From a virus (Duplodnaviria > Heunggongvirae > Uroviricota > Caudoviricetes), in IMG/VR virus record IMGVR_UViG_3300035696_002535: a DNA stretch of 64,000 nt. One strand, given 5' to 3'. Made by a program: the position numbers and the translations under genes. Under the pieces are notes generated by a model, which was given only the letters and a program-made list of their open reading frames with translations, was not told the origin of the DNA and did no database searches. Within the stretch, counting starts at the first letter, position 1. Each line of letters opens with the position of its first letter. This document shows, piece after piece, positions 40,785-63,826 of the stretch.

Positions 40785-41045
40785 ATGGCTATCGATAACT
40801 CATACCGTTTCTTCAATAATGCTCCCTTCTGTGAGTACTGGCCGTGTCATACCGGTATCCCCACAGAAGACTTTAACTGCAAGTTCTGCCTATGCCCATG
40901 TTACGCCTATGAAAACTGTGGAGGAAACTATACTGTTGAAAAAGATATAAAAGACTGCAGTGAATGTATACTGCCGCATAGAGCTGAAAACTATGAGGTC
41001 ATCATAGACTTTTTAAAAAAGAATGGAGCTCCGATACAAAAATGA
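40785..41045 (+). CDS. cysteine-rich small domain protein
   Basis: 'CEYWPCHTG...CKFCLCPCYAYENCGG...CSEC' matches the Cys-rich small domain pattern. Confidence 0.5.
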   Translation: MAIDNSYRFFNNAPFCEYWPCHTGIPTEDFNCKFCLCPCYAYENCGGNYTVEKDIKDCSECILPHRAENYEVIIDFLKKNGAPIQK

Positions 41046-41440
41046 GTACGTCTTTTATTAAACCTAAAAAAATTAAAAGATATAAGACCTTAGATAAACT
41101 GATGGCTTTTTTCTTTGGCTGTAAGGAATCTCAAGTGTCAGAATTCAGCTTAGGTGGAACAAACGAGGAGTCCAATAAAAACTACGTTTTGACTTATAAG
41201 AAATTCAAGGAAAATGCAGAGATCCAAGGAATATGGGGCTTTATAAAGGAAGATAAAGTTATGCATGTGTGGTTCAAAGAAAATATTCCAATAGAAGACT
41301 TAGTCATATTCATAGCCCATGAAGCTGGGCATTTAAACGGACGTCAATACAAAGATATTATGAAAGAAGAAAAGAAAGCCAAGCTTTTTGAAGAGGTAGC
41401 CATCTACGCTTATAAAAACGCTCTAAAAATCTTAGTATAA
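41042..41440 (+). CDS. small HExxH zinc metallopeptidase-like protein
   Basis: 'FIAHEAGHLNG'. Confidence 0.35.
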   Translation: MSTSFIKPKKIKRYKTLDKLMAFFFGCKESQVSEFSLGGTNEESNKNYVLTYKKFKENAEIQGIWGFIKEDKVMHVWFKENIPIEDLVIFIAHEAGHLNGRQYKDIMKEEKKAKLFEEVAIYAYKNALKILV

Positions 41441-41447
41441 GGGGTTC

Positions 41448-42101
41448 GTGACAATGGAAAAAAGATTCCTCGTAAAAAACAAAAACTGGAAATCTTATCT
41501 CGCAGCAGGGGAGGATATCAGAGAAGGGACCATACCAACAGAAGTAAACGTCTTTATAACAGAGCACACTACTCTCGGCAGCGATTATAAAAGATATCTG
41601 CTAAACATAGACGGAGTTTTTAACCAAGGGATACCAAATGAAGAGTGGGAGGAGCTCCAAAAGGCTCTTAACAATAAAGCAAGAGTTAAGGTAAAGGTTA
41701 TAAGTATATCTGGAAATCTGGTTAAAGCAGAGTTAAATGTAATAAAGGGTACCAGTTCTTTCTCCTATCTGATTCTGGAAGAAGATGCAGAGAAACTTCT
41801 TAAGATATGCACTGAGCCTGTATTGACGTATTCTAAATACGAATTTGGAGTGAAAAAGCAGTATTGGACTGATGACTACCAAATCTGGTGGATCAAGGAG
41901 TACTCAGGTCCTTATACTGGTTTGGTTCTAACCGGAGTTGAGATTAAAAATCCTTCGGAGGAGTTGACTATCCCGGATTGGGCTGGATCAGAGATAGCCC
42001 AGGATCAGAATGATATAGAAACAGATATGCTTTTGATTAAGCCTTCTAAAATACAACAAGTTCTGGCTAACTCAAAAGCTCCAGCTTATAAGGTGGATTA
42101 G
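41448..42101 (+). CDS. hypothetical protein
   Basis: 217 aa ORF. Confidence 0.4.
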   Translation: MTMEKRFLVKNKNWKSYLAAGEDIREGTIPTEVNVFITEHTTLGSDYKRYLLNIDGVFNQGIPNEEWEELQKALNNKARVKVKVISISGNLVKAELNVIKGTSSFSYLILEEDAEKLLKICTEPVLTYSKYEFGVKKQYWTDDYQIWWIKEYSGPYTGLVLTGVEIKNPSEELTIPDWAGSEIAQDQNDIETDMLLIKPSKIQQVLANSKAPAYKVD

Positions 42102-42102
42102 T

Positions 42103-42642
42103 ATGTTTCCAATGCTGGTAATAATACTCTCTATTTTATCTGTACTAGTTATTTGTATAATAGCTTTTTCCAATATCGCGGACAGGATAGAAAAACACAA
42201 ACATACAACGAACAAACTGGATTTATCTGACATAATCAAAAACGAAAGAAAGACAATTAGGCAAGCCTTAGTAAGCACTATCGAATCTCATTTGCCTAAG
42301 AGTTCTAAGTCCAGAAACATTAACAATGATACACGCCTGAGCGGAACTACTGGTGTAGTTGGACAGAAAGGATATCACGGGAGCACAGGTATAGTTGGAA
42401 CAAACTGCCTCTCAGGGATTACTGGAACAATTATTATCCCAAGAGCGACTACCAGCAGTCTTACTCTTTCTGGTGTCGGTAAGGATAGGAGAGTAGTGGG
42501 AACCAAATATGACCCACGAGGAGCTACTAGAACTGAATCGGATCCGCGAGGAGCTACTGGAACTGAGGTGGTTATAAAAACTATTTCAGAGGCTCAACGA
42601 AGCGCAGATATATTCAACATTATAGATAGCATGTGGAAATAA
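42103..42642 (+). CDS. membrane-anchored protein with collagen-like Gly-X-Y triplets
   Basis: N-terminal TM 'MFPMLVIILSILSVLVICIIAF'; 'GTTGVVGQKGYHGSTGIVGTN..GITGTI'. Confidence 0.45.
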   Translation: MFPMLVIILSILSVLVICIIAFSNIADRIEKHKHTTNKLDLSDIIKNERKTIRQALVSTIESHLPKSSKSRNINNDTRLSGTTGVVGQKGYHGSTGIVGTNCLSGITGTIIIPRATTSSLTLSGVGKDRRVVGTKYDPRGATRTESDPRGATGTEVVIKTISEAQRSADIFNIIDSMWK

Positions 42643-42851
42643 CCCTATAGCTATTTTTCCCCCTTAGAAAGAATTTTGTAATAATCTATGCATATACGCA
42701 CTTGTATGTATGCGTAGATACAATTTCTTTTTTCCAGAAGATCTAATAGAAGAACTTAAGGAGCTATCCAAAAAGACGGGTGCTCCTATGTCCGAGTTAT
42801 TACGCCGTTCTTTAAAAGAGTATCTGGATAATATAAAAAAGGACAATACTA

Positions 42852-43913
42852 ATGATAAGAGATGAGTATAGTCCTTATAAAATAGTACATCATCTAGAGA
42901 AGATAGCCCAATTTAAAAGGGGAGAACAACCTATACCTCTTCAGGTACAGATAGTCCCCACCAATAAATGCAACCATAGATGTGTTGCCTGCGCCTATAG
43001 AATGAAGGACTATCCCTCTAATGAGTGCTTTGAAGAACGAGATGAGTTAAGCTATGATAAGATAATAGAAACATTAGACTGTATGGTAGATATGGGCATA
43101 GAGGCTGTTCATTTTACTGGGGGAGGGTCACCCCTAGTACACCCAAAAGCTTTTGATATTATTAAAGGGGCATTTGATAGAAAAATAGAGGTAGCCCTTG
43201 TTTCTAATGGTTCTGCGCTCACAGAAAGCTTATGTGAAATGCTTGGAGATGCTGCCTGGGTCAGAATATCGGTAGATGCAGGATCCCCGGAAATCCACAG
43301 TTTGCTTAGAAATATCTCACAGAGTAATTTTGGAAAGATATGCAACAATATAAAGAACCTTGTTAAATACAAAAAGGGATCTATTATAGGTATAGGTTAT
43401 GTCGTTCAAAGCGAAAATTACAAAGAGATATATGAGGCTGCTAAACTTTTCAAGGACTTAGGAGTAGATAATTTTAGGATTTCTGCCGCTTTTACTCCAT
43501 TGGGATACGAGTATTTTAACAGTTTTAAAGATGAAGCTACAGGTCTTGCAAAAAAAGCAGAAAGCCTAACAGATAATAGATTCACTGTTTTTAACCTATT
43601 CAATGATCGAGTTAGGGATACTTTTGAAGGAGTTCAAGATTACAATCTTTGTCCTATAAAGGATCTCTTAACCTATATAGGGGCAGATGGGAATGTCTAT
43701 ACATGTTGCACACTAGCCTACAACCATAAGGGATTAATAGGATCCATAAAGAATCAGTCATTCAAAGATGTATGGAACAGCCTTGAAAAGCAAATGAAGT
43801 TCTCTTCGCATGACCCTTCTATTCACTGTAAACACCCTTGTATGTATAAAAATAAGAATGATTTTATTAATTACTGTATTAAACAGAATCCTAAGCACAT
43901 AAATTATATATGA
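42852..43913 (+). CDS. radical SAM enzyme with Cys-rich C-terminal (SPASM/twitch-like) extension
   Basis: 'NKCNHRCVACAY' (CxxxCxxC), 'FTGGGSPLVHP', C-terminal 'CCTLAY...CKHPC'. Confidence 0.65.
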   Translation: MIRDEYSPYKIVHHLEKIAQFKRGEQPIPLQVQIVPTNKCNHRCVACAYRMKDYPSNECFEERDELSYDKIIETLDCMVDMGIEAVHFTGGGSPLVHPKAFDIIKGAFDRKIEVALVSNGSALTESLCEMLGDAAWVRISVDAGSPEIHSLLRNISQSNFGKICNNIKNLVKYKKGSIIGIGYVVQSENYKEIYEAAKLFKDLGVDNFRISAAFTPLGYEYFNSFKDEATGLAKKAESLTDNRFTVFNLFNDRVRDTFEGVQDYNLCPIKDLLTYIGADGNVYTCCTLAYNHKGLIGSIKNQSFKDVWNSLEKQMKFSSHDPSIHCKHPCMYKNKNDFINYCIKQNPKHINYI

Positions 43914-44701
43914 AAACCTTCGATTGCTTTTTATTTTTTAATGAATTTGAATTGCTCCATCTACGTTTTATGGAATATTATGACTTTGTCGACTACTTTG
44001 TTTTGGTAGAAGCAACGAAAAGCCTGACAGGTAAACCAAAACCTTTGTACTACCAGGAATCCAAAGAACGTTTCAAAGAATTTGGAGATAAGATTATTAG
44101 TGTTGTGGTAGATGATATGCCGGAATATCGCTATCCTGATTTTATCTGGCCCGCCGAATATCACCAACGTAACTGTATTATGCGAGGACTCGAGGGGAGA
44201 GCTAAGCCAGAAGATAAGATATTCGTATCAGATTGTGATGAGCTTTGGGATACAAAAGTAGCCAAAGACCACGAAGCCGACAAAATAGTAACATACCAGC
44301 AGGATCTCTATTATTACTATGTAAATTGTAAACAAAACTCTATCTGGAACGGATCAATAGCGCTGCCGTACGGTCTATTACAAACTAATGGCCCTCAAGC
44401 TATTCGTAATGCAGCACGGTGGGGTGTGTACAATGTGGTATCTCCCGGTGGATGGCACTATTCTTATATGGGTGGAGCATCTAAAATAAAAGAGAAGGTT
44501 GAAAATCTGGCTGATGGCCATGATAACATTGATAGATTTGGCACAATAGAAAACATACAAAGTAAAATGGATACGGCTGGGGATCTTTTGGATCAAGCAG
44601 GGGTTGGCGTAAAGAAGGAATTTATTGAACTCAAATATACACCAAAAAAATTACCGGAATTTTTAAAACTGTATCCCAATTTCTATAGAAAGCCACAATA
44701 A
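43910..44701 (+). CDS. glycosyltransferase family 17-like (beta-1,4-GlcNAc-transferase-like)
   Basis: 'FDCFLFFNEFELLHLRFMEYYDFVDYFVLVEATKSLTGKPKPLYY' matches the GT17 N-terminal signature. Confidence 0.6.
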   Translation: MKTFDCFLFFNEFELLHLRFMEYYDFVDYFVLVEATKSLTGKPKPLYYQESKERFKEFGDKIISVVVDDMPEYRYPDFIWPAEYHQRNCIMRGLEGRAKPEDKIFVSDCDELWDTKVAKDHEADKIVTYQQDLYYYYVNCKQNSIWNGSIALPYGLLQTNGPQAIRNAARWGVYNVVSPGGWHYSYMGGASKIKEKVENLADGHDNIDRFGTIENIQSKMDTAGDLLDQAGVGVKKEFIELKYTPKKLPEFLKLYPNFYRKPQ

Positions 44702-45483
44702 TGGAACAGTCAGCTACAGAAAACAAAATAAAATACAGTTTTTTGATGCCATATTATGATCGTGAGTATCATTTGACATCTACTTTAAGATCTTTTTTGA
44801 TTAAATACTCAGAGCGAAAAGATTTTGAAATTATAGTAGTCGAAGATTACAAAAACATTCTCAATGAGGACCATCACAAAAAGTTATTAAATGTGATTAA
44901 CGACAAAAATTTCATACCCTTAAAAATAAAACATTTACAGAATTTTGGAAAGATTGTCTTTAGTCCCACCATCCTGTTTAATCAGGGGGCCAAAGAGAGT
45001 TCCGGAGAAATTTTAGTTATAACAAATCCGGAATGCTACCATGAGACCAATATATTAAAAGGTTTTGATGAGGAGTTTGCAATCAATAAAAATATATATG
45101 TAATATGTGCATGTCAGTCAGTTAATATGCAATACAATACTTCTGTTAATGAAGACGGATCAACCCACAAAGAACCTACAGGTTTCTATCATTTTGAACA
45201 GTGGTATCAACATTCTGTATATAATAACCGCAGACTTAATTTTTGCTCGGCAATTACTAAAGAGAATTATTTCAAAATAGGTGGTTTTGATGAAAAGTAT
45301 GCCGATGGCATAGCTTTTGACGATGATGACTTCAGAGATACTATTCTTTATAAAAGTGATATAAAGGTGATTACAAGGGATGATCTATTTGTCAGCCATT
45401 TTAACCATGACGTTTCCTATCAAACGAACACAAGTTTGATTAATGTTAATTTAAATTATTACAAAAAGAAATGGAATAAGTAG
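44701..45483 (+). CDS. GT-A glycosyltransferase (GT2/GT7 beta-1,4-galactosyltransferase-like)
   Basis: 'YSFLMPYYDRE' and 'GGFDEKYADGIAFDDDDFRD' (compare WGWGGEDDD). Confidence 0.45.
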   Translation: MEQSATENKIKYSFLMPYYDREYHLTSTLRSFLIKYSERKDFEIIVVEDYKNILNEDHHKKLLNVINDKNFIPLKIKHLQNFGKIVFSPTILFNQGAKESSGEILVITNPECYHETNILKGFDEEFAINKNIYVICACQSVNMQYNTSVNEDGSTHKEPTGFYHFEQWYQHSVYNNRRLNFCSAITKENYFKIGGFDEKYADGIAFDDDDFRDTILYKSDIKVITRDDLFVSHFNHDVSYQTNTSLINVNLNYYKKKWNK

Positions 45484-45501
45484 TGAAAGAAGATAACCTA
45501 T

Positions 45502-46311
45502 ATGCAAACATCTAAAACTATATCTTTCTTTTGGGCGAACAAAACAATGTCTTGGTTGCGTTATATGACATTGTTTTCTTTTAGGAAATATAATCCGGAA
45601 TGGGTAATAAACCTATATTTATCAGAACAAAAAATAAATAAAAATGTATGGGATACTCCTGAAAGCCAGGATTTTATTAGCAAAGACTATTTTAACCTTT
45701 TAAGTGGACTAAACATTGACATAAAAGATTATGAGATAAAATCAAAAAACGAGGAAGATTTGTCTCCACCACAAAGAAGCGATCTTTTTGAATGGGATAT
45801 TTTAGCAACCAGTGGTGGGTTTTATTCAGATATGGATGTACTTTTTTTAAAAAGTATAAACGATCTTTATGAAAAAACAAAAGACTATGACACAGGGATA
45901 TGCTACACCGAATACTATTCTATAGGATTCATGTTTTCAAATGGAAATAATAAGTTTTTCAAAGATGTTTATGATGGATTTTATAATAAGTTTGACAAGA
46001 GTGATAGTCAGGGGGCAGGATCAACAGGAATAGGTAGAAGATGGCCAAGTGTTAAAGATATAGAGTCAAATTACGGAAAGGTCTATAACATTCCTTTTAA
46101 TTTTTTCTATAAATATGACTCCAACAATGTTGAAAAAATATATGAAATAAATGATTTATACTCAATGGATGAAAACTGTGTAGGGCTTCACTGGTATGCT
46201 GGTCACTCGCTTTCACAGCAGATTAACTCTATTCTCAATGAATCAAACTACAAGGAACAAAATACTTTGCTTTCTAGAATACTTAAGAAAGTATTGGAAC
46301 AGAAAGATTAA
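45502..46311 (+). CDS. GT32-like glycosyltransferase (Gly_transf_sug, DXD)
   Basis: 'SDLFEWDILATSGGFYSDMDV' matches 'SDilRy.iLykyGGiYiDtDv'. Confidence 0.6.
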   Translation: MQTSKTISFFWANKTMSWLRYMTLFSFRKYNPEWVINLYLSEQKINKNVWDTPESQDFISKDYFNLLSGLNIDIKDYEIKSKNEEDLSPPQRSDLFEWDILATSGGFYSDMDVLFLKSINDLYEKTKDYDTGICYTEYYSIGFMFSNGNNKFFKDVYDGFYNKFDKSDSQGAGSTGIGRRWPSVKDIESNYGKVYNIPFNFFYKYDSNNVEKIYEINDLYSMDENCVGLHWYAGHSLSQQINSILNESNYKEQNTLLSRILKKVLEQKD

Positions 46312-46313
46312 CA

Positions 46314-47057
46314 ATGTTTGTTTTAAAGGTAATGGTTGTTGGAGGCTATGCAGAGAGATACATAGAAAGATGTATAGAATCTGTATATAGCCAAAAGTAT
46401 GAGAACTGGGAATGTCAAGTCATCCTCGATCCGGTAGGGGATAATTCTTATGACAAAGCAGTAAAATATCAAAATAAAAAATTGAAAGTTAAGCTTAATG
46501 AAATCAGACAGTATGGTCTTGCAAACTTTTTAGAAGCTAGTAAACTTCTAAACCCATTAGATAACGACATAATGGTAATGCTTGATGCTGATGATTGGCT
46601 GGCATCACCGGATACATTTTCTATATTAATTTCGAAATATATTAAAAATCCTAAGCTACTTTTAACCCACGGTACTTGGGAAAGCTACCCTCCCATAGGT
46701 ATATCCAGTAGATGGAATTATCCATATACTCAGGAAGATTTCAAAACTGGAGTTAGAAAAATAGCTTGGAGGGCAAGTCATTTGAGAACGTGCAAGTACA
46801 AGCTATGGAAGCGCGTTAAAGATGAGGATCTTCGGGACCCTTCAGGTAAATACTTTACTGTAACATGGGATTTAGCTTTTATGTTCCCCATGCTAGAGAT
46901 GGCTGGATTTAATAGAGTTGAATTTATTCCGGAGATACTTTATATATACAACATGGAGACGCCATTTAACGATTACAAGATAAACTCTAATACCCAGGTA
47001 AATACAGAAACATACATTAGAAATAGGCCACCATATGAGATTCTTGGAGAAATATGA
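46314..47057 (+). CDS. glycosyltransferase family 2
   Basis: 'VVGGYAERYIERCIESVYSQ' and 'MVMLDADDWL'. Confidence 0.7.
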   Translation: MFVLKVMVVGGYAERYIERCIESVYSQKYENWECQVILDPVGDNSYDKAVKYQNKKLKVKLNEIRQYGLANFLEASKLLNPLDNDIMVMLDADDWLASPDTFSILISKYIKNPKLLLTHGTWESYPPIGISSRWNYPYTQEDFKTGVRKIAWRASHLRTCKYKLWKRVKDEDLRDPSGKYFTVTWDLAFMFPMLEMAGFNRVEFIPEILYIYNMETPFNDYKINSNTQVNTETYIRNRPPYEILGEI

Positions 47058-47866
47058 CCGAATTAAACTGCATAGTATTTTCTCGTAATCGAGCCTGCCA
47101 GTTAGATGCATTTCTAAGAAGTCTTAAGTTGTTCTGGGTAGATTGGAAGGATTATACAAAAATCTCAGTAATATGGTGCTATGATGGGGCCAAATTCCTT
47201 GACGGATATAACAGGTTATTCAATGATCACCCGGACATAACTTTCATAGATCAAACCAACAAGGATTTCAAAGAAACCGTAATTAATAGTGTGGATCCAA
47301 GTATTCCATTCACAGTGCAGTTCGTAGATGATATCATTTTCATCAACCCTTTTACCATAAAATGCCCTGAATTCGAGGCTTTCAAAACTGAGCCTGAAAC
47401 AACCTGTATCTCTCTAAGGTTGCATCCTTTAATAACCTATTGTTATATGTTGAATATAAGTATGTTTCCTCCTCAATGGGTAGCAGAAGGAAAATGGGCT
47501 TGGTTGAATCTTCCAGGAGATTTTGGCTATGCCGATTCCGTGGATGGACATATTTTTAGGACAGAAGACATACTGCCATGCATTCGAGAACAATCTTATA
47601 CCTATCCCAATGCTTTGGAAGGTGCGATGACACAATTCATTCCAAAACGACCATATATGCGATGCTTCCAAAAAGCTAAAATAGTTAACATTCCAGCCAA
47701 CAAAGTTGGACAACTTATTACTAATAGGTCTGGGAATGTATCTGTGGATGTCTTAAATGATCAATATTTGAAAGGATTGAGGATTGATTTAAGGCCTTTT
47801 TGTGGGATACAGACTAGTTCTGTACACTGTGAATTGGAGTATAAGTGGGAACCAAATATCATATAA
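47054..47866 (+). CDS. hypothetical protein (possible GT-A fold)
   Basis: 'FVDDIIFINPF'; weak. Confidence 0.3.
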   Translation: MTELNCIVFSRNRACQLDAFLRSLKLFWVDWKDYTKISVIWCYDGAKFLDGYNRLFNDHPDITFIDQTNKDFKETVINSVDPSIPFTVQFVDDIIFINPFTIKCPEFEAFKTEPETTCISLRLHPLITYCYMLNISMFPPQWVAEGKWAWLNLPGDFGYADSVDGHIFRTEDILPCIREQSYTYPNALEGAMTQFIPKRPYMRCFQKAKIVNIPANKVGQLITNRSGNVSVDVLNDQYLKGLRIDLRPFCGIQTSSVHCELEYKWEPNII

Positions 47867-48693
47867 GGGGTTATTAAATATGAAAAGTTTTTTCAAAAAC
47901 ACACATCCTTCTATGCAGCTCAATAGCTCAGGATTCGGCGCAGTCATTAACAATGCAATTAATATTTGTAGGTATCATTACTACAAATTTGGAAATCTTG
48001 ATATTTACATAGATGCTCCAGAAATTAATAACATTTTTGACACCCCAGTCGTCAAAAATATATTTGAATATAATTATGACATAGAAAAAGATTTCAATTC
48101 GGCAAATTTTGAAAATAGCAGTAATGCCCATATTTTGTGTGACAAAGAAAAAATCATTATTAAAAATAAAATCTACAACGATATTTTTAAACTAAAAGAT
48201 ATCGAACTCTATAGGGCGGAAAAAGAAAAATTCATCACCGATAAAACCTTATCAGTACATGTCAGAGGAACTGACAAAAAAATAGAAATTAAACCCCCCG
48301 AACCGAACGATATAATTAATCATATTACTAAGATATATGCTGGAAAAACACGATATTAACAACATATTTCTGGCAACAGATGATATATACTACCAAGATC
48401 TTGTAATTAAAAATTTCAAAGATTTGGTGCGATACAGAGAAAGAACAGTGAGCCTTGACGGTAAACCTGTTCATTTTTTGTGTAGCAAAGATGAAAGATA
48501 TCGTTTTGATAGGGAGGTAATGTTTGATACCTATTTACTTGCTATGTCCAACTATTTTCTGTATTCATTTTCAAATACTAGTTATCTTGCATTAACCATT
48601 GGTATCAACAATTTCAAAAAAATTGATTGTATAAATATCCCTTTGCAGAAACAAACCCAGACTTCATATGGTTTTGGCGTGGAGATAAAATGA
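47802..48693 (+). pseudogene. fucosyltransferase-like gene (GT11/GT23/POFUT-type HxRxxD motif) split by a +1/-1 frameshift near 48340-48360
   Basis: ORF 47802..48359 carries 'LSVHVRGTDKK'. The overlapping ORF 48337..48693 carries 'NNIFLATDD' (compare fVaSDD). The two are in different frames and together form one roughly 300 aa protein. Confidence 0.45.
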
Positions 48694-52302: not shown

Positions 52303-52318
52303 AACCAGAAATTAAACA

Positions 52319-53485: not shown

Positions 53486-53494
53486 AAAGATTAA

Positions 53495-54942: not shown

Positions 54943-55604
54943 AAAATATAATAAGTTTTAGTCTTTACGGGGATAAAAAACTTTATCCAGTAGGAGCACT
55001 TAAAAACGCTCTACTACAAAAAACTGTTTATCCGGAATGGACATGTAGATTCTATGTAGATGATAAAGTCCCTAAAGAAGTTATTGAGCAACTAAAAGAT
55101 TATGGCTCGGAAATTATCGAAAAAGGGCCGTCCAGAAATTTTATAGGATCTTTTTGGAGATATGAAGTGGCCTTTGATCCCTCTGTGGATCGATATGCCG
55201 TAAGGGATTGTGATTCAAGATTAAATGATCGAGAATATCTGGCTGTAAAAGAGTGGATCTCTGAAGGAACTTCTTTCCACATAATGCGAGACCATCCCAA
55301 CCACCTTCATGTAATTATGGCTGGGATGTGGGGGGGAATTTCTGGAAAAGTTCCTGAATTTGAGCAAATTTATACTAATTATATAAAACAATCTAATGGG
55401 GAATTTTGGTCTGATATGTATTTTCTTGAAACCCTCTTATGGGATGGATATATCAAGAAAAACCATACAGCTCATGATGAATATTTTAAACCCCTCGGCA
55501 TAGAAAAGCCGTTTCCAATTAAACTTGTAGACGAATATTCTTTTGTTGGCAACAAATATGATGAGAACGATAAGCCTGTATATAGCGTAAATAGGAGGGA
55601 CTAA
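54939..55604 (+). CDS. hypothetical protein (possible glycosyltransferase)
   Basis: 'ISFSLYGDKKLYPVGALKN'; weak. Confidence 0.3.
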   Translation: MKNIISFSLYGDKKLYPVGALKNALLQKTVYPEWTCRFYVDDKVPKEVIEQLKDYGSEIIEKGPSRNFIGSFWRYEVAFDPSVDRYAVRDCDSRLNDREYLAVKEWISEGTSFHIMRDHPNHLHVIMAGMWGGISGKVPEFEQIYTNYIKQSNGEFWSDMYFLETLLWDGYIKKNHTAHDEYFKPLGIEKPFPIKLVDEYSFVGNKYDENDKPVYSVNRRD

Positions 55605-55606
55605 AA

Positions 55607-56314
55607 ATGTTAAGTATTGTGACAGGGACTTTAGAAAGAAGACACTTACTTCCGGGGCTTATTGCAAACACAGTCGATGCTAATGAACAGCTGGAGCTCG
55701 TATTGGTTGATGGGGGTTCTACGGACGGAACCATTGACTATATCAAGGGATTAAATCATCCTAGAATAAAACTAATTGAGGTTGGCCATCGCAGTCCATA
55801 TCCACACTATATGAATCTTGGAATAAGAAACGCCTCATACGACTATATCTGCCAATGGAATGATGATGTATTATTATTAAATTCCTGGAACGAAGTCATA
55901 ATTTTAATGCAAACTTGTGATGCCTGTCTTTTTTCTTGGCAGCATGGAGAGTTAAATAGTCTCCCTAATTCTTGGAATTTAATGTATGATAAGACCGCAG
56001 ATCCTAAATGTGGAAATGAAGTTGTGATGAATTATGGAACATATAAAAAAGAGATATTCAAAAAAATTGGAATGTATGATAATTCATATCTGTATCGATA
56101 TGTCGATGGAGACATGAGCTTCAGAGCGTGGTCTTTTGGATTTAAGGTCTACCCCGCCTATGAGATTAAAGTCCTTTCGTTACTATCGGAACTAAATACC
56201 AAGAGAATGACAGAATATCCAATGACATTAAATCCAGAAGACCTTCAAAACTATGCAAACCATCTAGCAATGTATAGAAGAAAAGAACTGTCGACAACTG
56301 CAGAATTCCTATGA
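55607..56314 (+). CDS. glycosyltransferase family 2
   Basis: 'LELVLVDGGSTDGT' (classic GT2 DxGSTDxT). Confidence 0.7.
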   Translation: MLSIVTGTLERRHLLPGLIANTVDANEQLELVLVDGGSTDGTIDYIKGLNHPRIKLIEVGHRSPYPHYMNLGIRNASYDYICQWNDDVLLLNSWNEVIILMQTCDACLFSWQHGELNSLPNSWNLMYDKTADPKCGNEVVMNYGTYKKEIFKKIGMYDNSYLYRYVDGDMSFRAWSFGFKVYPAYEIKVLSLLSELNTKRMTEYPMTLNPEDLQNYANHLAMYRRKELSTTAEFL

Positions 56315-56997
56315 AATATATATACCACCATCTAGGGTTAGGGGACCATATCATATGCAATGGAATAGTACGAACACTTGCAGAAGAAGAGCCTATATCT
56401 TTATTTTGTAAAAACATATATGCTGAATCTGTAAAAGCAATGTATGCAGACTCGGATAAGATAACAGTAATACCTGTACAGGATGATGGAGAAGCTAGAA
56501 AATTTCTTGAGGGCATCCCTTCCGAATCAGTCGAACGGATCGGATACTCTAGAGACGACTTTCAGTCGTTATCAAAAAATTTTGTCTTTGATGAAGTCTT
56601 CTATAAGCAGGCATCACTTCCTTTCAGTTATAGGTGGTCAAAATTCTACTGCAATCGTAATCTTAGTGCGGAAAGTTCTCTAAAAGAAAAAGTTGTATCA
56701 TTTGATCGGTATCAATTTATTCATTCTGACCCTGAAAGAAAGATGGTGATTAATCCAGACTATCTTAATAAAAGTCTTCCTTCTGTCTGCGCCATTTTAG
56801 GATTAACTTTGAATATTCTTGACTATATATCTATAATAGAAAGCGCAGAAGAGATTCATGTAATACCAAGTAGCTTTATGCTCTTAATAGACTCAATAGA
56901 AACTAATGGAAAGTTATTTGTTCATAAGTATACAAGACCTGTTATTTTTTTAGATGATCCACATCTTAAGAAAAATTGGACTATTTACAAAAAATAA
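56311..56997 (+). CDS. hypothetical protein, possibly GT9 heptosyltransferase-like
   Basis: 'IYHHLGLGDHIICNGIVRTL' resembles the GT9 N-terminal 'GaiGDvi..tP'; weak. Confidence 0.3.
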   Translation: MKYIYHHLGLGDHIICNGIVRTLAEEEPISLFCKNIYAESVKAMYADSDKITVIPVQDDGEARKFLEGIPSESVERIGYSRDDFQSLSKNFVFDEVFYKQASLPFSYRWSKFYCNRNLSAESSLKEKVVSFDRYQFIHSDPERKMVINPDYLNKSLPSVCAILGLTLNILDYISIIESAEEIHVIPSSFMLLIDSIETNGKLFVHKYTRPVIFLDDPHLKKNWTIYKK

Positions 56998-57012
56998 ATG
57001 TATAGGTAAAAA

Positions 57013-57654
57013 ATGAAAACTGCCGTTTTTGTCACAGCAATTCCCGACATGAAGTGGATAAGGACTCATGGCCCCATGTGTCTTGAAATTATTCGTGCCT
57101 ACTTTAGTCACTATGGCCATGAGGTACTGGTTCTCGACAAGAATCCTGGTATATCGGTAAAGCATAATTCATGGCTGTGGTTGCTTGCACATCAGATATT
57201 CCCAGGATATGACTATCTTCTTTATTGGAATCTTGATATATTGCCTAACAAATTTGATGAGGATATATTTAATAGCTTAGACTTAACCAAAATAGCAGTA
57301 TGCCGGGAAGCTGACGGTAGTAGTACAAAATTTCCATACTATTATTACAATTGTGGAATGGCAGGCATACCTAAACAATATAGTCAGTTCTGCATTGATA
57401 CATTTAATCGTTGGAAAGATGATCCAAATAACTGGCCGTCGTACGAGCAATATTATGTGAACATGGAATTAGGAGAGCATAAAATTGATGTACATGAAAT
57501 ACCAAAAAAATTCAATATGTTCTATGGATCGGATCCGTCCGTTGCGGTATGTCTACACTATTCATATACGGTTTACAAGGAAACAGAGCCATTAGCCACT
57601 CCGGTTATGGAAGAGCACTATAAAAGACTAAAAGAGCAAGGTATACTAAAATGA
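57013..57654 (+). CDS. hypothetical protein (possible nucleotide-diphospho-sugar transferase)
   Basis: No firm motif. Confidence 0.3.
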   Translation: MKTAVFVTAIPDMKWIRTHGPMCLEIIRAYFSHYGHEVLVLDKNPGISVKHNSWLWLLAHQIFPGYDYLLYWNLDILPNKFDEDIFNSLDLTKIAVCREADGSSTKFPYYYYNCGMAGIPKQYSQFCIDTFNRWKDDPNNWPSYEQYYVNMELGEHKIDVHEIPKKFNMFYGSDPSVAVCLHYSYTVYKETEPLATPVMEEHYKRLKEQGILK

Positions 57655-58670
57655 CTTTTTTTAATATTGACCAACATGTCTCCGTTAATAGTAATATTGA
57701 GTATATTCTTAAAAAATTGGGCCACAGCCTGGAAATAATTTCTCTTTCACAGCACCACTGGGTTATGAATAGAGAGCGCTTTCATGTTCCGTTTATTGAA
57801 GAAAACATTCACTGCCTTATTGAAAAAGAAAAATGGCAGGAATTTTACACTGTTTTTAAACACCCTCTTGCTTCGTTTGATGGATTTATTGTCTGTCATC
57901 CTCCAATATTTGCTGTTCTATATAAAAATTTTGTTAACAAGCCAATCATTGTACAGATATCAATAAGATATGATTTTCCATATACAGACAACCTCAAACA
58001 GCTAAAAATCTTTAATGATTTTTTACTAAGTGACTCAGTGATTATTACGGCAAATAATAAGTTAGATAAAGCATATTTTGAAGATCGGACAGACGGTAAA
58101 AAGGAATGCAAGTATATTCCGTCATTGTGTGAATACACCAATATGACATACAAACCACAACGTAATGAATTCTTATTATATGATAACCAACGACAATATC
58201 AAATAAAAGACACAGTAAACCGTCACGATCTTCCAGATGGACATAAATGGGTTGATATTGGGGCATTCAAAGGAATAATTCATATACCGTATAATATTTC
58301 GACTATGAGCTTTTTTGAGCAATATACGGCTTGTATCCCACTATTTTTCCCCAGTAAAAAGTTTCTGTTGGAACTGTATTATCAAGGAGCAAGAGTATTA
58401 GACCAGTGCTTTTGGTCACAGGAACAACACGGTAAATATGGATCTCAAACCATGGATAAAGTATTAGATCTAGCAGATTTCTATAGTGAAACTTTCCCAC
58501 ATGTGATTATGTTCGATTCTATCCAACAACTTGAAGATAAGCTTCACGACAATAGTCTTTTAGAGCAAACAACCGGGAAGATGGAAGAGGATAACAAAAG
58601 GAACAAAGAAAAAGTATATACGGCGTGGAAAGATATAATGAGTAACGTTGACTATAAGGTAAAGTCTTAA
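57651..58670 (+). CDS. hypothetical protein (339 aa)
   Basis: Translationally coupled within the glycan operon. Confidence 0.35.
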   Translation: MTFFNIDQHVSVNSNIEYILKKLGHSLEIISLSQHHWVMNRERFHVPFIEENIHCLIEKEKWQEFYTVFKHPLASFDGFIVCHPPIFAVLYKNFVNKPIIVQISIRYDFPYTDNLKQLKIFNDFLLSDSVIITANNKLDKAYFEDRTDGKKECKYIPSLCEYTNMTYKPQRNEFLLYDNQRQYQIKDTVNRHDLPDGHKWVDIGAFKGIIHIPYNISTMSFFEQYTACIPLFFPSKKFLLELYYQGARVLDQCFWSQEQHGKYGSQTMDKVLDLADFYSETFPHVIMFDSIQQLEDKLHDNSLLEQTTGKMEEDNKRNKEKVYTAWKDIMSNVDYKVKS

Positions 58671-58685
58671 CACAGGAATTGAAAT

Positions 58686-59600
58686 ATGGTTTTTGCACCA
58701 CAATTAAAACTTGCATCACACGAAAGATTCGTAAAATATCTCAAAGGTGAGGTTATACCAGTCATTAACACCGAAATATCAGTATCAAGCATATGCAACG
58801 CACAGTGCCCCGTATGCTTTTATCGAGATGACAATAATATAAAAGAAACGTTTATTCTTCGAAATAAATTGTTGACTTTTCTTTTCGATGCTGATACTAA
58901 TGGACTTGAAGCAGTAACATGGAGTGGTGGGGGTGAGCCAACGTTACATCCAGATTTTTCAGATATCGTGCAACAGGTCTCTCAACAAACAAATTTGGAA
59001 CAAGGGTTATTCACAAATGCCCTACTACAACCCACGTACCCAGCATGCTTATTAAAATGGATCCGAGTAACAAAAACCAATGAACCTTTCCCCGAAGAGC
59101 ACGTTTTATTACTTCGACAGCAATGCGTTAATACAGGTTTATGCATTAATTATAGAGGTAAAGAAGACGACCGAAACATTTGTAAAGCATTAGAGATTGC
59201 TCATAAAATGGATCTTCGCTATGTTCAGGTACGACCAGCACTAAATATCATGGGTGCAACAACTAATATCGAGAAACCTGATATTCAAGATGAAAAACTG
59301 ATATTAAATAAATACAAATGGGCTGAATGTGGAATCAAAGATCGTGGGTATGCACAGTGTGAGGCTTTTCATTTTAGCCCTATGATATGGGAAAATGGCA
59401 TCATGTCTGTTTGTATGTACATGAGACATCACGAAGAATATAATATCGGTAGCATCTATGAAAATAATTTTCTGGATCTTTGCCGAAAAATGCCCTCCAG
59501 TCTTCCAGTTTCTAATGACTGTCAAATCTGTTGCAAAAATAATGAGGACAATAAACTGATAAATGATTGCAAAAAATTAGAGGATAAAAAATTCATATGA
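58686..59600 (+). CDS. radical SAM enzyme
   Basis: 'SSICNAQCPVCFY' (CxxxCxxC), 'WSGGGEPTLHPDF'. Confidence 0.6.
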   Translation: MVFAPQLKLASHERFVKYLKGEVIPVINTEISVSSICNAQCPVCFYRDDNNIKETFILRNKLLTFLFDADTNGLEAVTWSGGGEPTLHPDFSDIVQQVSQQTNLEQGLFTNALLQPTYPACLLKWIRVTKTNEPFPEEHVLLLRQQCVNTGLCINYRGKEDDRNICKALEIAHKMDLRYVQVRPALNIMGATTNIEKPDIQDEKLILNKYKWAECGIKDRGYAQCEAFHFSPMIWENGIMSVCMYMRHHEEYNIGSIYENNFLDLCRKMPSSLPVSNDCQICCKNNEDNKLINDCKKLEDKKFI

Positions 59601-60334
59601 TAGGAATGGAAACGAATATTGTAGAGTTGGCTATATCTTATCGCTGTCAGAATAGATGTAACAACTGTGGCACACTATCAACGCAGGCCCCTGTAGATGG
59701 TGCCCTGACAACTGATGATATAAAAAACTTTGTTGATGAAACCGTTTCTTGTAATCATAAATGGTCTTGCATAACGATCACCGGAGGAGAGCCAACCCTA
59801 CATCCTGGTTTTTTGGATATTTGTGAAATACTGACAGCATATAGAAAAAAATTCAATCAAGATACAATTCTTAAGTTTGAAACTAACGGTAACGGGATTA
59901 TAACAGAAAAAATGATATTAGAGGCTCATAAAATCGGATTTACTGTTGGTCTATCTTTTAAAAAAGATAATGCAATAAACATACACGGAGAATGTATCCC
60001 CTATGTCCCTGTTAATAATTCACCTACAGACAATAGTGCTCAATACGTCCTTGGGTGCAACATATCAAAAGACTGTGGAGTATGTCGTAACTATCTTGGA
60101 TGGTTTGAGTGCACTCCGGCGGGGGCACAGGCACGGGTTTTTAACTATAAACCACTTGCAAAAACTTTAGCCGATTTTCTTAACCTGAAAGATGATGAAA
60201 TATATAAGGCATTTTTTCTTCACTGTAGGCACTGTGGTCATTCTTGGGAGCAGCCAAGAAGCTGTGAACAGATTACAAGTAAAACTTGGCAAGAAGCACT
60301 TGATAGCTATGCTATTAGGCATAAATCCTTATGA
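59597..60334 (+). CDS. radical SAM enzyme (second, adjacent)
   Basis: 'SYRCQNRCNNCGT' (CxxxCxxC), 'ITITGGEPTLHPGF'. Confidence 0.6.
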   Translation: MIGMETNIVELAISYRCQNRCNNCGTLSTQAPVDGALTTDDIKNFVDETVSCNHKWSCITITGGEPTLHPGFLDICEILTAYRKKFNQDTILKFETNGNGIITEKMILEAHKIGFTVGLSFKKDNAINIHGECIPYVPVNNSPTDNSAQYVLGCNISKDCGVCRNYLGWFECTPAGAQARVFNYKPLAKTLADFLNLKDDEIYKAFFLHCRHCGHSWEQPRSCEQITSKTWQEALDSYAIRHKSL

Positions 60335-60840
60335 GTTCTATAGAAACAATAACATTCAAAGGCATCAAATATCCATTATTTCAGGCTGAGGGATTTGCGG
60401 CCCAGTTTGCTTTTCCCTTTGCACTAAAGATCTGCAAAGGAGTTGGATATGATATTGGATGCATGAGGCGAGAATGGGCTTTTCCAGGATCCATACCAGT
60501 CGATAAGAATTTCAACGATGGCTGGAATGCCAATAAGCTGCCTCATAAGAATGTTGATTATATTTTTTCTTCTCATTGCCTTGAACATGTTGAGAACTGG
60601 GTTGGCACTTTTGACTATTGGACCGAAATTTTAAAACCTCATGGAGTTATTTTTTTGTATCTTCCTCATCCAGATCAGATTTATTGGCGTCCATGGCATG
60701 ATCGTAAACACCATCATAGTTTTTCAGTTGATATCATAAAAAATTATATGATAGATAACAATTACATAAACATTTTTAATTCAGAAAGGGATTTGAATCA
60801 TTCTTTTATGATCTTTGGGGAAAAGGATGCGATACAATGA
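60331..60840 (+). CDS. putative class I SAM-dependent methyltransferase
   Basis: 'YDIGCMRREW...SIPVD' and 'DYIFSSHCLEHVENW...LKPHGVIFLYLP'. Confidence 0.45.
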   Translation: MSSIETITFKGIKYPLFQAEGFAAQFAFPFALKICKGVGYDIGCMRREWAFPGSIPVDKNFNDGWNANKLPHKNVDYIFSSHCLEHVENWVGTFDYWTEILKPHGVIFLYLPHPDQIYWRPWHDRKHHHSFSVDIIKNYMIDNNYINIFNSERDLNHSFMIFGEKDAIQ

Positions 60841-61328
60841 AACTCATAAATGGGAGAGGGCAGCTGGGTGAAATGTTCCAAAAAAATATAAAATTATTTT
60901 ATCACGTGGATGCAACACTCTACCATACTTGGAATTACATTGATAAATCTAAAACTGTCCAATTGTGGTGCTTCAATAGATTTAGAGATTATATTTATAC
61001 CCACGAAGAAAGTATAATTTTCATATCAACAAAATCTGAGGAATATAATTTTTACACAGAGTACAAAAGAAAATCTGAAGAACTTCTCAAAGAAAAGTGT
61101 GCTCATTATTCCGTTATACGCCTACCCAATATAATAGGAAAAGGAATCTGTACCAGATTTATTCAAAATCCGTCTTTGGAAGCTTATGGAAATTTAGAGC
61201 TCATCACACTTGAAGAGGCTTATGAAAATATACGTACTAACTTATTTACTAATAATTCTATTATCAATATTAATGGGGAAAAAATTAGTGCCAAACTCGC
61301 AAAAATTTTGTTGCTTTTTAAAAGATAA
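60837..61328 (+). CDS. hypothetical protein (possible degenerate RmlD-like reductase N-terminus)
   Basis: 'MKLINGRGQLGEMF'; weak. Confidence 0.25.
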   Translation: MKLINGRGQLGEMFQKNIKLFYHVDATLYHTWNYIDKSKTVQLWCFNRFRDYIYTHEESIIFISTKSEEYNFYTEYKRKSEELLKEKCAHYSVIRLPNIIGKGICTRFIQNPSLEAYGNLELITLEEAYENIRTNLFTNNSIININGEKISAKLAKILLLFKR

Positions 61329-61373
61329 AATAAAATGAAATCTTTATACTTTAACAAATAAAAAGGAGATTTT

Positions 61374-62381
61374 ATGAAAACGGCACTTGTTTGTGGGGGT
61401 CACGGGTTCATAGGTCATCACATGGCTCGTAGGCTTAAAAAAGAAGGATATTGGGTAAGGACGGTTGATGTTAAAGATTATCCATATGGGAATCTCCGTA
61501 AAGATGTTGATGATTATGTTGTTGCAGATCTAAGAGATTTTGAGATCTGTAAAAAGGTATTTTTAACTCCAGAGGGCAAAGGATTTGGTGAAATATACCA
61601 ATTTGCAGCATTCATGGGAGGAGCCGGGATCGTCTTTACTGGTAACCATGATGCCAAGATAATACATGATTCAATGCTTATTAACATCAACAGCGCAGAG
61701 ATGGCAAAAAGAACTCATGTTGGGAAGATATTCTGGAGCAGTTCAGCTTGTATCTATAATCAGAAAAACATGGAATCCATAGACAACCCCATTACAGCAG
61801 AAGACTCTGCCTATCCTGCCTTTCCAGACAGCAATTATGGTTTCGAAAAACTCATGTCAGAAAGACTTTATCAATCATATGCTAAGAACTATGGTTTAAA
61901 TGTGAGAATTGCCCGTTTTCATAATATCTGTGGCATAGAGGGGGCCTGGGGTAATGGCCGCGAAAAGTTTCCAGCAGCAGTATCCAGAAAAGTAGCTACA
62001 GCCAAAAATGGAGATACTATTGAGATATGGGGTGATGGCCTTCAAACACGTAGCTTCCTGTATGTCGATGAGTGCCTTGAAGGGATCCGTCGACTGATGG
62101 CCTCAGATTTCCAAGGACCGGTCAATATCGGCTCTGATGAGATGGTATCTATAAATGATTTAGTAGAGATGACTAAAGATATAGCAGGTAAACCAGACAT
62201 AAAAATCAGTCATGTCCCAGGGCCTGTTGGTATTCGTGGAAGAAACTCAGACAACAAACTTATAAAAGAAAAGCTTAACTGGGTTCCCAACTATCCTCTT
62301 CGAAAAGCTATGGAAAATATTTATCCGTGGGTAGAAAAACAGATAAAGGAAAACAAGCAGGATTATTCTTGGACAAGTTAA
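61374..62381 (+). CDS. NAD-dependent epimerase/dehydratase (SDR) family protein
   Basis: 'ALVCGGHGFIGHHMARRLKKEGYWV' and the Y..K region 'SNYGFEKLMSE'. Confidence 0.7.
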   Translation: MKTALVCGGHGFIGHHMARRLKKEGYWVRTVDVKDYPYGNLRKDVDDYVVADLRDFEICKKVFLTPEGKGFGEIYQFAAFMGGAGIVFTGNHDAKIIHDSMLININSAEMAKRTHVGKIFWSSSACIYNQKNMESIDNPITAEDSAYPAFPDSNYGFEKLMSERLYQSYAKNYGLNVRIARFHNICGIEGAWGNGREKFPAAVSRKVATAKNGDTIEIWGDGLQTRSFLYVDECLEGIRRLMASDFQGPVNIGSDEMVSINDLVEMTKDIAGKPDIKISHVPGPVGIRGRNSDNKLIKEKLNWVPNYPLRKAMENIYPWVEKQIKENKQDYSWTS

Positions 62382-63607: not shown

Positions 63608-63826
63608 CTATTTGTCTCTGAAGACGATACGACCTTTTGTTAAATCATATGGCGACAGTTCCAACCGTACTTTATCTCCCACAAGGATTCGAATGAAGTT
63701 CATACGAATCTTCCCTGATACATGAGCATGGACCATGTGTCCATCTGAAAGCTCTACCTTGAAGTGAGCGTTGGGAAGAGTCTCTTTTACGATGCCCTCG
63801 ACCTGGATTGATTCTTGTTTGGACAT
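63608..63826 (-). CDS. infA: translation initiation factor IF-1 (start at 'MSKQES', preceded by GGAGGT)
   Basis: '[64 protein letters not shown]' is nearly collinear with bacterial IF-1. Confidence 0.85.

Follow-up and report, generated by a model that had tools for sequence, protein, structure and literature searches.

We examined a 64,000-nucleotide window of the virus record IMGVR_UViG_3300035696_002535 (IMG/VR), in which a sequence-only reading had described positions 40785-62381 as a glycan-biosynthesis locus with fucosylation genes. The 29 open reading frames (ORFs) of this block all lie on the + strand, as that reading had stated, and the block is flanked on both sides by - strand blocks. 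Thirteen ORF junctions in the block overlap by 1-8 nt, and its G+C content (0.34-0.38) is slightly below that of the sequence upstream. A gap of 210 bp lies between the first four ORFs and the glycan genes; because of this gap, and because the first four ORFs are absent from homologous modules elsewhere, the glycan locus proper was placed at approximately 42852-62381. It comprises about 20 kb and about 25 co-directional genes in what looks like the genome of a very large phage, and encodes a predicted soluble assembly line for a deoxy-sugar-rich glycan. Pfam matches were judged against the gathering cut-offs, with PHROG, PDB, and NCBIfam as further libraries, and Pfam confirmed nearly every family in the initial gene list. 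At neither end of the locus did scans for promoters and terminators give more sites than shuffled sequence.

The gene at 52319..53485 had been read as a DegT aminotransferase. Its product has the DegT fold; however, in a PDB search it was closest to ColD (2gms, E 3e-69), the pyridoxamine phosphate-dependent GDP-4-keto-6-deoxy-D-mannose 3-dehydratase, followed by CDP-hexulose 3-dehydrase E1 entries, whereas true aminotransferases scored far lower. The first His of 'FYWGHHMTTVEGG' (HH) aligned with His188 of ColD, which replaces the Schiff-base Lys. When 63 genomic DegT relatives were aligned over this catalytic position, His was found in all 14 of the closest relatives and Lys in all 49 of the more distant ones. 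The enzyme is accordingly a ColD-type 3-dehydratase instead of an aminotransferase.

The adjoining gene (51361..52302) encodes an Fcl/ColC-family GDP-4-keto-6-deoxyhexose epimerase/reductase, which gave 342 bits to Escherichia coli Fcl, in agreement with the earlier description of an Fcl-like enzyme. Against the NCBIfam Fcl model it scored 439.5 bits, which is under the equivalog cut-off of 500 and compatible with ColC, a homologue of Fcl found in colitose clusters. The protein presumably keeps the catalytic positions SSC...YxxxK...NSH, which we take to be those of E. coli GMER. Sequence alone does not tell ColC from Fcl; since the neighbour is of ColD type, however, the Fcl-like enzyme most likely finishes a 3,6-dideoxy (colitose-type) sugar and not only fucose.

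Besides Fcl, a pair of epimerase/dehydratases belonging to the SDR family (short-chain dehydrogenases/reductases) had been noted. Both are indeed extended SDRs, and the last gene of the locus (61374..62381) could be assigned more narrowly as a GDP-mannose 3,5-epimerase (GME): it matched Arabidopsis GME (2c59) with 287 bits and an E-value of 1e-84, compared with at most 85 bits to any other SDR structure. The motifs SSACIY and GREK, which we assume to be those of plant GME, seem conserved. The predicted enzyme can make GDP-L-galactose or GDP-L-gulose. The other SDR (50331..51368) is similar to UXS and 4,6-dehydratases, with 95 bits to UXS1 in the PDB and only 85 bits to the NCBIfam dTDP-glucose dehydratase model (cut-off, 365). 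Judged by its sequence, it is not a canonical Gmd and is most like UDP-glucuronate decarboxylase and 4,6-dehydratases.

Upstream of this SDR lie two genes for a transketolase-like thiamine diphosphate (ThDP) enzyme, confirming the split transketolase noticed before. The N-terminal, PP-binding subunit (48690..49472, with the start codon taken from the gene call in locus L001) gave 118 bits to Transketolase_N and 200 bits to the NCBIfam transketolase model, and the C-terminal, pyrimidine-binding subunit (49456..50334) gave 81 bits to Transket_pyr. In contrast to these enzymes, Gmd was not recognized in the earlier reading, and this was borne out for the locus and for the whole window: with a true phage Gmd (E 7e-147 against PDB Gmd) as the tblastn query, the only matches across the 64 kb were the other SDRs, with 21-24% identity. 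ManB and ManC were likewise not found in the window. De novo synthesis of GDP-L-fucose, judging from the Fcl-like enzyme being present and Gmd absent, could run only on a host-made intermediate.

Subsequently, one genome per prokaryotic species was scanned with the ColD alignment as the query. The nearest ColD relatives came from bacterial metagenome-assembled genomes (MAGs), the best being a Terriglobia MAG with 64% identity. The set of UXS-like SDR, both transketolase subunits, ColD, and Fcl-like enzyme recurred in a Patescibacteria MAG, an unclassified MAG, and a Lachnospiraceae MAG. A Sedimenticolaceae MAG carried the cassette without the SDR, a Pelagibacteraceae single-amplified genome carried ColD and transketolase only, and the Terriglobia MAG carried the cassette with Gmd and without transketolase. 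The two transketolase subunits were conserved together with ColD in five loci (L018-L022). A transketolase pair was located within 10 kb of the His-type ColD gene in 5 of 14 loci, versus none of 60 loci of Lys-type DegT proteins, and the UXS-like SDR showed the same distribution (5/14 versus 0/60), the positive loci being from Patescibacteria, Lachnospiraceae, Sedimenticolaceae, Pelagibacteraceae, and Terriglobia, which represent several bacterial phyla. By our own arithmetic, the hypergeometric p for this difference is approximately 1e-4, although the loci are not independent of each other. This co-occurrence indicates that the transketolase and the first SDR belong functionally with ColD and do not serve a separate function. 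Two of the bacterial cassettes (the Patescibacteria and DBS2 loci) add a pyruvate-dehydrogenase-type E1 alpha/beta pair, and the extra partners in the bacterial cassettes suggest a family of related yet distinct dideoxy-sugar pathways. The Lachnospiraceae cassette also includes a B12-radical S-adenosylmethionine (rSAM) protein, a NUDIX protein, a GHMP kinase, and a Gmd-like dehydratase. Bacterial cassettes were located at L018 5222-12087, in L019, and at L021 5107-11155. In the literature, nothing relevant was found on a phage colitose pathway or on a described ColD/transketolase cassette.

The ColD-type enzyme with its catalytic His and the adjacent Fcl-family enzyme resemble the GDP-L-colitose pathway of E. 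coli O55/O111, Salmonella O35, and Yersinia pseudotuberculosis O:6. Unlike that pathway (Gmd/ColB, ColD, ColC), the window has no Gmd, ManB, or ManC, and here a split transketolase and an additional SDR, both unneeded in the classical route, accompany the ColD/Fcl pair in a conserved cassette. Because of these extra genes, the product may not be plain colitose. Yersiniose is formed by an E1 3-dehydrase, then the ThDP enzyme YerE, and then the reductase YerF; E1 pairs of the AviB1/AviB2 type are also known. The locus has a similar logic, with a 3-dehydratase, a ThDP enzyme that would transfer a two-carbon unit, and an SDR reductase, although this is a functional analogy and not homology. In contrast to yersiniose, the ThDP enzyme here is transketolase-like and not acetolactate-synthase-like, and the nucleotide is presumably GDP and not CDP.

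On this basis, the host would supply GDP-mannose, and the 4-keto-6-deoxy intermediate would probably be made by host Gmd, with the UXS-like SDR as a possible alternative source. The ColD-type and Fcl/ColC-type enzymes would convert GDP-4-keto-6-deoxymannose to a colitose-type 3,6-dideoxy-L-hexose, and where ColD does not act, the Fcl-type product would be L-fucose. The transketolase pair and the UXS-like SDR may act with ColD and elaborate the dideoxy sugar by ThDP-dependent two-carbon transfer followed by reduction; alternatively, they may feed a precursor into the ColD pathway. The product is probably a colitose-type 3,6-dideoxy sugar, possibly further elaborated, rather than simply fucose. 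By analogy with the 3,6-dideoxyheptose of Campylobacter jejuni HS:5 (PMC10440746), a supply of sedoheptulose was also considered as the role of the transketolase; GmhA, HddA, and HddC were not found in the window, which counts against such a role.

Three rSAM proteins had been reported at 42852, 58686, and 59597, and all three were confirmed, each carrying a CX3CX2C motif. The first, rSAM1 (42852..43913, 353 aa), matched Radical_SAM with 72.6 bits and SPASM with 38 bits. Its family contains 388 relatives, of which the top 120 share 48-71% identity and are approximately 353 aa long, with C40/C44/C47 and five C-terminal Cys residues invariant. The AlphaFold2 model had a pLDDT of 93.7, and its nearest solved folds were DesII, BlsE, and SkfB. 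These Cys residues, the SPASM match, and the fold neighbours place rSAM1 in the SPASM/twitch subfamily. Every NCBIfam model scored far under its cut-off with rSAM1. Identity to the sugar-acting DesII and BlsE, to the SPASM/twitch maturases SkfB and SuiB, and to anSME was only 13-20%, and the rSAM1 family forms its own tight clade in glycan loci, unlike the SPASM/twitch maturases of loci for peptides made on the ribosome and modified after translation. Members were found in bacteria, archaea, and phages, namely in a cellular polysaccharide locus, a 314 kb contig, and IMG/VR phage contigs. The constant neighbour of rSAM1 is a GT-A glycosyltransferase (GT) of the type encoded at 44701, the two occurring together in L006, L007, and L009-L013. 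This partner may transfer a sugar after rSAM1 has modified the sugar or nucleotide sugar.

The second protein, rSAM2 (58686..59600; Radical_SAM, 23.5 bits), is a distant paralogue of rSAM1 (22% identity over 346 aa, E 3e-10). The third, rSAM3 (59597..60334, 245 aa), matched Radical_SAM with 37.5 bits and Fer4_12; its family is very rare, with only 4 relatives among 5.8 billion proteins, and the model built from the 4-sequence alignment had a pLDDT of 55.7. Homologues of both are encoded in the phage loci L014/L015, at 35% identity for rSAM2 and 50% for rSAM3, the latter two genes upstream of a portal gene. A C-methylated product had been suggested for these enzymes. However, Pfam found only Radical_SAM, SPASM, and Fer4_12 in the three proteins, without a B12-binding or HemN-type architecture, and at 245-353 aa they are too short to include a B12 domain. 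C-methylation by the rSAM proteins is therefore unsupported, as none of them has the architecture of a class B or class C methylase. With tblastn of the phage collection, no cyanophage record matched the three proteins. A fourth rSAM protein is encoded outside the locus (27871-28752, - strand, 293 aa; Radical_SAM, 36.8 bits), with no close NCBIfam assignment.

The locus carries about ten, and at least nine, GT genes, which comprise GT2, GT10, GT17, GT32, GT47-like, and NodZ-like types. The GT17, GT32, and GT10 assignments of the earlier reading all exceeded their Pfam gathering scores. The GT17-like protein (43910..44701) gave 65.3 bits to PF04724 (cut-off, 26), with the match spanning profile positions 74-229 of 348, and a homologue with 56% identity and the same Pfam match adjoins the rSAM1 homologue in the 314 kb contig (L006). 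The GT32-like protein (45502..46311), which contains a DxD region, gave 32.4 bits to PF04488 (Gly_transf_sug; cut-off, 23), and a homologue with 31% identity occurs in L007 and L010-L013. The GT10-like protein (54148..54942), of the alpha-1,3/4-fucosyltransferase family, matched the C-terminal domain PF00852 with 29.8 bits (cut-off, 23.9), and the alpha-1,3-fucosyltransferase motif FSIAIENDQYESCWTEK (FxxxxEN...TEK) could be read directly. Its homologues are encoded by many T4-like cyanophages at 35-48% identity, with annotations such as GT family 10 (one of them) or fucosyltransferase.

Two GT2 enzymes had also been listed, and Pfam matched PF00535 at 46314..47057 (41.7 bits) and 55607..56314 (39.7 bits); the latter shares 53% identity with S-SRM01 gp305 and 49% with a protein of a 735 kb uncultured phage. 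A third, weak GT2-type match (22 bits, just under the cut-off) was obtained for the GT2/GT7C-like GT-A enzyme at 44701..45483, which had been called beta4GalT-like. That name has no Pfam backing on the window protein itself, which gave no GT7 match at E ≤ 0.01; its homologues carry PF00535, and only about 8 of 43 carry PF02709 (Glyco_transf_7C) with or instead of GT2.

At 57651..58670, a 339 aa protein was assigned as a GT47/exostosin-like (GT-B) enzyme from the domains of its family and a profile search of the PDB. The family has 776 representatives, and of 71 members, 8 matched RXYLT1_C and 7 matched Exostosin_GT47. The profile search returned 8avq (AO75L) and the exostosin structures 8q8i/8asa (E 6e-21), with 8avq as the closest solved relative. 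We take this AO75L to be chlorovirus PBCV-1 A075L, the capsid-glycan xylosyltransferase. A homologue with 54% identity is encoded in L014.

Several proteins were recognized by their relatives only. The conserved 221 aa protein at 54939..55604 is probably a GT, with homologues in phage glycan clusters (S-SRM01 gp306, 38%; the 735 kb phage, 35%; L014, 36%). The 228 aa protein at 56311..56997 is related to S-SRM01 gp304 (38%) and to a protein of the 735 kb phage (37%), and the 213 aa protein at 57013..57654 belongs with rSAM2 and rSAM3, since its 49% homologue lies between both rSAM genes in L014/L015.

Two ORFs, 47802 and 48337, mapped contiguously onto the two halves of S-SRM01 gp303, annotated as 'fucosyltransferase NodZ'. 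When fused, they aligned end-to-end with gp303 (35% identity over 260 aa, E 4e-41). A weak Pfam O-FucT match (E 0.029) was also obtained. The two ORFs are thus a single NodZ/O-FucT-like fucosyltransferase gene (47880..48693), interrupted by a frameshift (+1) close to the A5 run at 48343-48347. The frameshift is probably real, because the identical sequence is present in an independent metagenome assembly. The gene is either a pseudogene or contains a recoding site needed for expression. As for the two methyltransferases reported previously, a class I S-adenosylmethionine-dependent enzyme was confirmed at 60331..60840 (Methyltransf_23, 37.7 bits), whereas the second, a putative one of 218 aa at 53495..54151, gave no Pfam match and only a weak PHROG match (phrog_6636, E 2e-5).

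Next, the locus was compared with those of other phages. It is a mosaic of gene modules that circulate among large phages, probably built by accretion. The cyanophage ACG-2014f has the pair of ColD and Fcl-like (gp210) enzymes with 45-46% identity, preceded by a true Gmd, which is absent here. S-SRM01 shares Fcl (gp299, 48%), GT10-like (44%), and GT2 (53%) enzymes, the NodZ-like fucosyltransferase, and the two conserved proteins encoded at 54939 and 56311. The 735 kb phage has this set minus Fcl and the fucosyltransferase, plus a relative of rSAM1. The 314 kb contig (L006) combines rSAM1, GT17, the 44701-type GT, a methyltransferase, and GME, the last with 65% identity and approximately 2 kb from the rSAM1 homologue.

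Two modules were found beside virion genes. In an abundant 80 kb phage lineage, rSAM1, a methyltransferase, GT32, and the 44701-type GT are encoded between head genes (prohead protease, major capsid, and head-closure) and the gene for a 1651 aa protein. In L014/L015, a P22-type portal gene (annotated in L015) is closely preceded by the genes for rSAM3, the 57013-like protein, rSAM2, and then a small GT2, and approximately 4 kb further upstream lie those for the GT47-like and 54939-like proteins. The first lineage (80-113 kb) is represented by L007 1-21062 (ENA ERZ28563735 scaffold_154) and L010-L013 and is listed in 55 blocks of the collection; its head-tail block also has three faint Anp1-like ORFs right after the capsid/head-closure genes. 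L014 5378-12781 and L015 4528-14330 come from a phage with SSB, endonuclease VII, and Cpn10 genes.

The locus is like the clusters of T4-like cyanophages (S-SRM01, ACG-2014f, S-SCSM1, S-SSM7, and P-SSM2) in its co-directional SDRs, methyltransferases, and many small soluble GTs. The isolated cyanophage S-SCSM1 encodes Gmd, Fcl, GME, and three fucosyltransferases, and clusters of lipopolysaccharide (LPS) type are present in P-SSM2 and S-SSM7 (PMC9602691). Compared with the cyanophage clusters of 10-15 kb, the locus is larger, lacks Gmd, and adds the transketolase/UXS-like SDR cassette, GT17, the GT47-like enzyme, and the three rSAM proteins. Glycan islands are already known in large phages; the sugar cassette and the three rSAM proteins are unusual.

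No ORF of the locus had more than one predicted transmembrane (TM) segment in a hydropathy scan, and no locus protein matched a Pfam family of Wzx, Wzy, or ABC type, an initiating phosphoglycosyltransferase, a flippase, a transporter, a polymerase, or a ligase. With at most one TM segment per protein, the locus therefore lacks a flippase, polymerase, initiating transferase, and ligase, which points to a cytoplasmic acceptor, likely a phage virion protein. The chlorovirus-like GT47 relative and the homologous modules adjacent to capsid or portal genes lean the same way. In such a scheme, the approximately ten soluble transferases would assemble the glycan in the cytoplasm from these sugars, including GDP-L-galactose or GDP-L-gulose from GME, and the methyltransferases and rSAM proteins would tailor it. 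We tentatively propose that the locus is a phage-borne, entirely soluble (cytoplasmic) assembly line in a genome of huge-phage type, with a virion protein as the most likely acceptor, this acceptor being slightly favoured over host envelope intermediates.

Glycosylation of the capsid and tail tube of mycobacteriophages is reported (Freeman et al. 2023, PMC10527164, as cited by others). The locus resembles the virion glycosylation systems of mycobacteriophages and chlorovirus PBCV-1 in that virus-encoded, soluble cytoplasmic GTs would work without host export machinery. Unlike in those systems, no structural genes adjoin the locus in the window. The mycobacteriophage systems have about two GTs, compared with about ten here, and neither they nor the chlorovirus system include rSAM proteins.

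Several points weigh against a virion acceptor or the chemistry proposed above. Because Gmd is absent, phage genes alone do not suffice for the deoxy-sugar branch, and one fucosyltransferase gene of the locus is frameshifted. The chemistry of the transketolase/SDR pair and of all three rSAM proteins is predicted, and the fold comparison of rSAM1 does not split sugar-acting from peptide-acting rSAM proteins. The adjacency of the rSAM1/GT pair to capsid genes is not universal: in the viral contig L009 the pair lies among replication-type genes, and it also occurs in cellular polysaccharide loci. No structural gene was seen among the 30 larger flank ORFs scanned in the window, so that homology and analogy carry both the assignment to a phage and the choice of a virion acceptor.

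Equivalent clusters of T4-like cyanophages have been read as modifying the host cell wall or LPS (PMC9602691), which likewise speaks against a virion acceptor and for a remodelling of the host envelope. The enzymes would then act on undecaprenyl-linked O-antigen, LPS-core, or capsule intermediates of the host during infection, with initiation, flipping, and ligation by the host, and the altered surface would, for example, block superinfection or the adsorption of progeny to lysing cells. We regard this as a serious possibility. Auxiliary metabolic genes, and not those of the head module, surround the genes shared with S-SRM01 and ACG-2014f; cellular polysaccharide loci also contain the ColD cassette and the rSAM1 family (with GT4, RgpF, and LPG_synthase_TM genes adjoining); and dependence on host Gmd fits a host that already makes GDP-deoxyhexose glycans. 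However, the locus encodes no membrane-associated component, its nine or more GTs far exceed known seroconversion systems, and two of its modules adjoin capsid or portal genes in other phages.

If the sugar chemistry were as first read, Fcl would form GDP-L-fucose, the DegT protein an amino sugar, and the product would be fucosylated. The Fcl-like score, the GT10-like and NodZ-like transferases, and the Gmd-Fcl-GME set of S-SCSM1 with its three fucosyltransferases (PMC9602691) agree with this. Nevertheless, the reading is improbable, as the putative aminotransferase, whose nearest match is ColD, carries His where the Schiff-base Lys would be, its gene adjoins the Fcl-like gene as in colitose clusters and ACG-2014f, and the NCBIfam Fcl score is under the equivalog cut-off. 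Fucose may still be made in parallel with the dideoxy sugar, so that this reading fails only in part.

It was then considered whether the window could be of cellular or other mobile-element origin, with the locus being a common O-antigen or capsule island of bacteria. No terminase, portal, capsid, or tail gene was found among the 30 larger flank ORFs scanned in the window, and the closest ColD relatives are in bacterial MAGs. However, the locus has no Wzx, Wzy, phosphoglycosyltransferase, or transporter; no tRNA gene, Rfam family, or cellular housekeeping gene was found in the 64 kb; and the flanks are rich in ORFans, with PHROG-specific families, three homing endonucleases, and best matches in jumbo and huge phages. 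A cellular origin is thus very unlikely, and the window is very probably of phage origin, in line with the phage-borne locus assumed at the outset. It is documented that GTs encoded by viruses attach a variety of glycans to DNA (Pyle et al. 2024, as cited in PMC12619734); even so, hypermodification of phage DNA with a glycan against restriction is scarcely credible here, since the scans of the locus and window showed no gene of hydroxymethylase or base-modifying type, the transferase number and deoxy-sugar pathways are far beyond known DNA-glycosylation systems, and homologous modules adjoin capsid or portal genes.

Returning to the virion acceptor, a more specific proposal can be formulated, with two pieces of sugar chemistry that phages and cells have in common: the cassette would make an undescribed GDP-linked 3,6-dideoxy sugar with a ThDP-installed two-carbon branch or extension, and the rSAM1/44701-type GT pair together with rSAM2/rSAM3 tailoring would glycosylate the phages' own virions. 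We consider this combination rather unlikely as a whole; if true, rSAM-dependent tailoring of virion glycans would explain the position of such modules next to capsid and portal genes in other lineages of phages. What the glycan clusters of large phages build, and on what acceptor, is so far almost entirely predicted. Here, one operon-like block unites colitose-type deoxygenation, a ThDP pair that specifically accompanies this step across bacterial phyla, GME, GT10, GT17, GT32, and GT47-like enzymes of eukaryote/virus type, and three non-methylase rSAM proteins. If the acceptor is the virion, phage virion glycosylation would extend well beyond actinobacteriophages, with radical chemistry added. 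Testable units are provided by the pair of rSAM and GT (in bacteria, archaea, and phages), the rare double-rSAM module by a portal gene, and the ColD/transketolase cassette; the cassette and the rSAM-GT modules are the parts most worth experimental attention.

The four ORFs that head the block encode a zf-like, Cys-rich protein of 86 aa (40785..41045; PF04071, 60 bits), a 132 aa metallopeptidase-like protein with a directly read HEAGH (HExxH) motif and no significant Pfam match (41042..41440), a 217 aa ORF without a Pfam or PHROG match (41448..42101), and a protein of 179 aa that has a single N-terminal TM segment and 7 GXY triplets in a row (42103..42642). The block had been said to begin with a collagen-like membrane protein; it is the zf-like protein, with no counterpart in homologous modules of other loci, that comes first, and the GXY protein, fourth, stayed below the threshold for Pfam Collagen (E 0.027, 14.7 bits; cut-off, 27.2). 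Two further ORFs of the locus, 47054..47866 (270 aa) and 60837..61328 (163 aa), gave no significant match. Like 41448, 54939, 56311, and 57013, they had no match in Pfam, even at a relaxed E-value, or in PHROGs, and a PDB sequence search with 47054, 54939, and 57013 also gave none.

The flanks encode PcfJ-like, NS endonuclease, RNA ligase, and sigma-70 region 4 proteins and a kinase-like/PP2C pair. Concatenated flank proteins had clustered homologues with 31-36% identity in uncultured phages of 485, 595, and 462 kb, so that the genomic background resembles uncultured phages of 460-600 kb and not Kyanoviridae. The kinase-like (673-2385), PP2C-like (3479-4366), and isochorismatase-like (8063-8893) ORFs, all on the - strand, were matched in LR745208 (485 kb) and LR756500 (462 kb), and the match in LR756511 (595 kb) covers the kinase-like and PP2C-like ORFs only. 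PcfJ-like and NadE homologues are encoded by the 595 kb phage, and homologues of the poly(ADP-ribose) polymerase (PARP), RNA ligase, and NadE by other jumbo phages, those of PARP occurring in jumbo phages of Xanthomonas and Stenotrophomonas. Neither the locus nor the upstream 22 kb had a megablast match in the phage collection, which is uninformative on origin, and IMG/VR scans with the ColD and PARP proteins found no relatives. Look-ups of identical proteins and one exact-DNA scan of JGI metagenomes yielded only fragments of at most 8.7 kb, each 100% identical to the window. A giant eukaryotic virus had come into view through PARP, the kinase/PP2C-like ORFs, and the eukaryote-type GT families; it was rejected in view of the overlapping, operon-like genes, the sigma-70 region 4 protein, the PHROG matches, and the best matches in huge phages.

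The homing-endonuclease-type genes lie at 9595-10578 (+ strand, phrog_4645), 17896-18798 (- strand, GIY-YIG), and 35331-36620 (- strand, HNH). The PARP-like protein (18973-20397, - strand), which has a WGR, a regulatory, and a catalytic domain, and a NAD synthetase dependent on glutamine (33425-35314, - strand; CN_hydrolase and NAD_synthase domains) are encoded 13 kb apart, so that one enzyme using up NAD and one producing it occur together against a phage background. A flotillin-like Band7/SPFH protein containing a long repeat rich in Ala, Glu, and Lys (29417-30931, - strand) and a PspA/IM30-like protein (12845-13528, - strand) are of membrane-stress/scaffold type, which is unusual in phage genomes. 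The patch at 12001-16000 is rich in G+C (0.46-0.47, compared with 0.35-0.43 elsewhere), and its ORFs had no Pfam or PHROG matches. Just downstream of the locus, a 93 aa ORF (63608-63889, - strand) carries an IF1/eIF-1a domain (PF01176) according to the precomputed annotation of an identical gene elsewhere, and is of the translation-factor-like type reported in huge phages.

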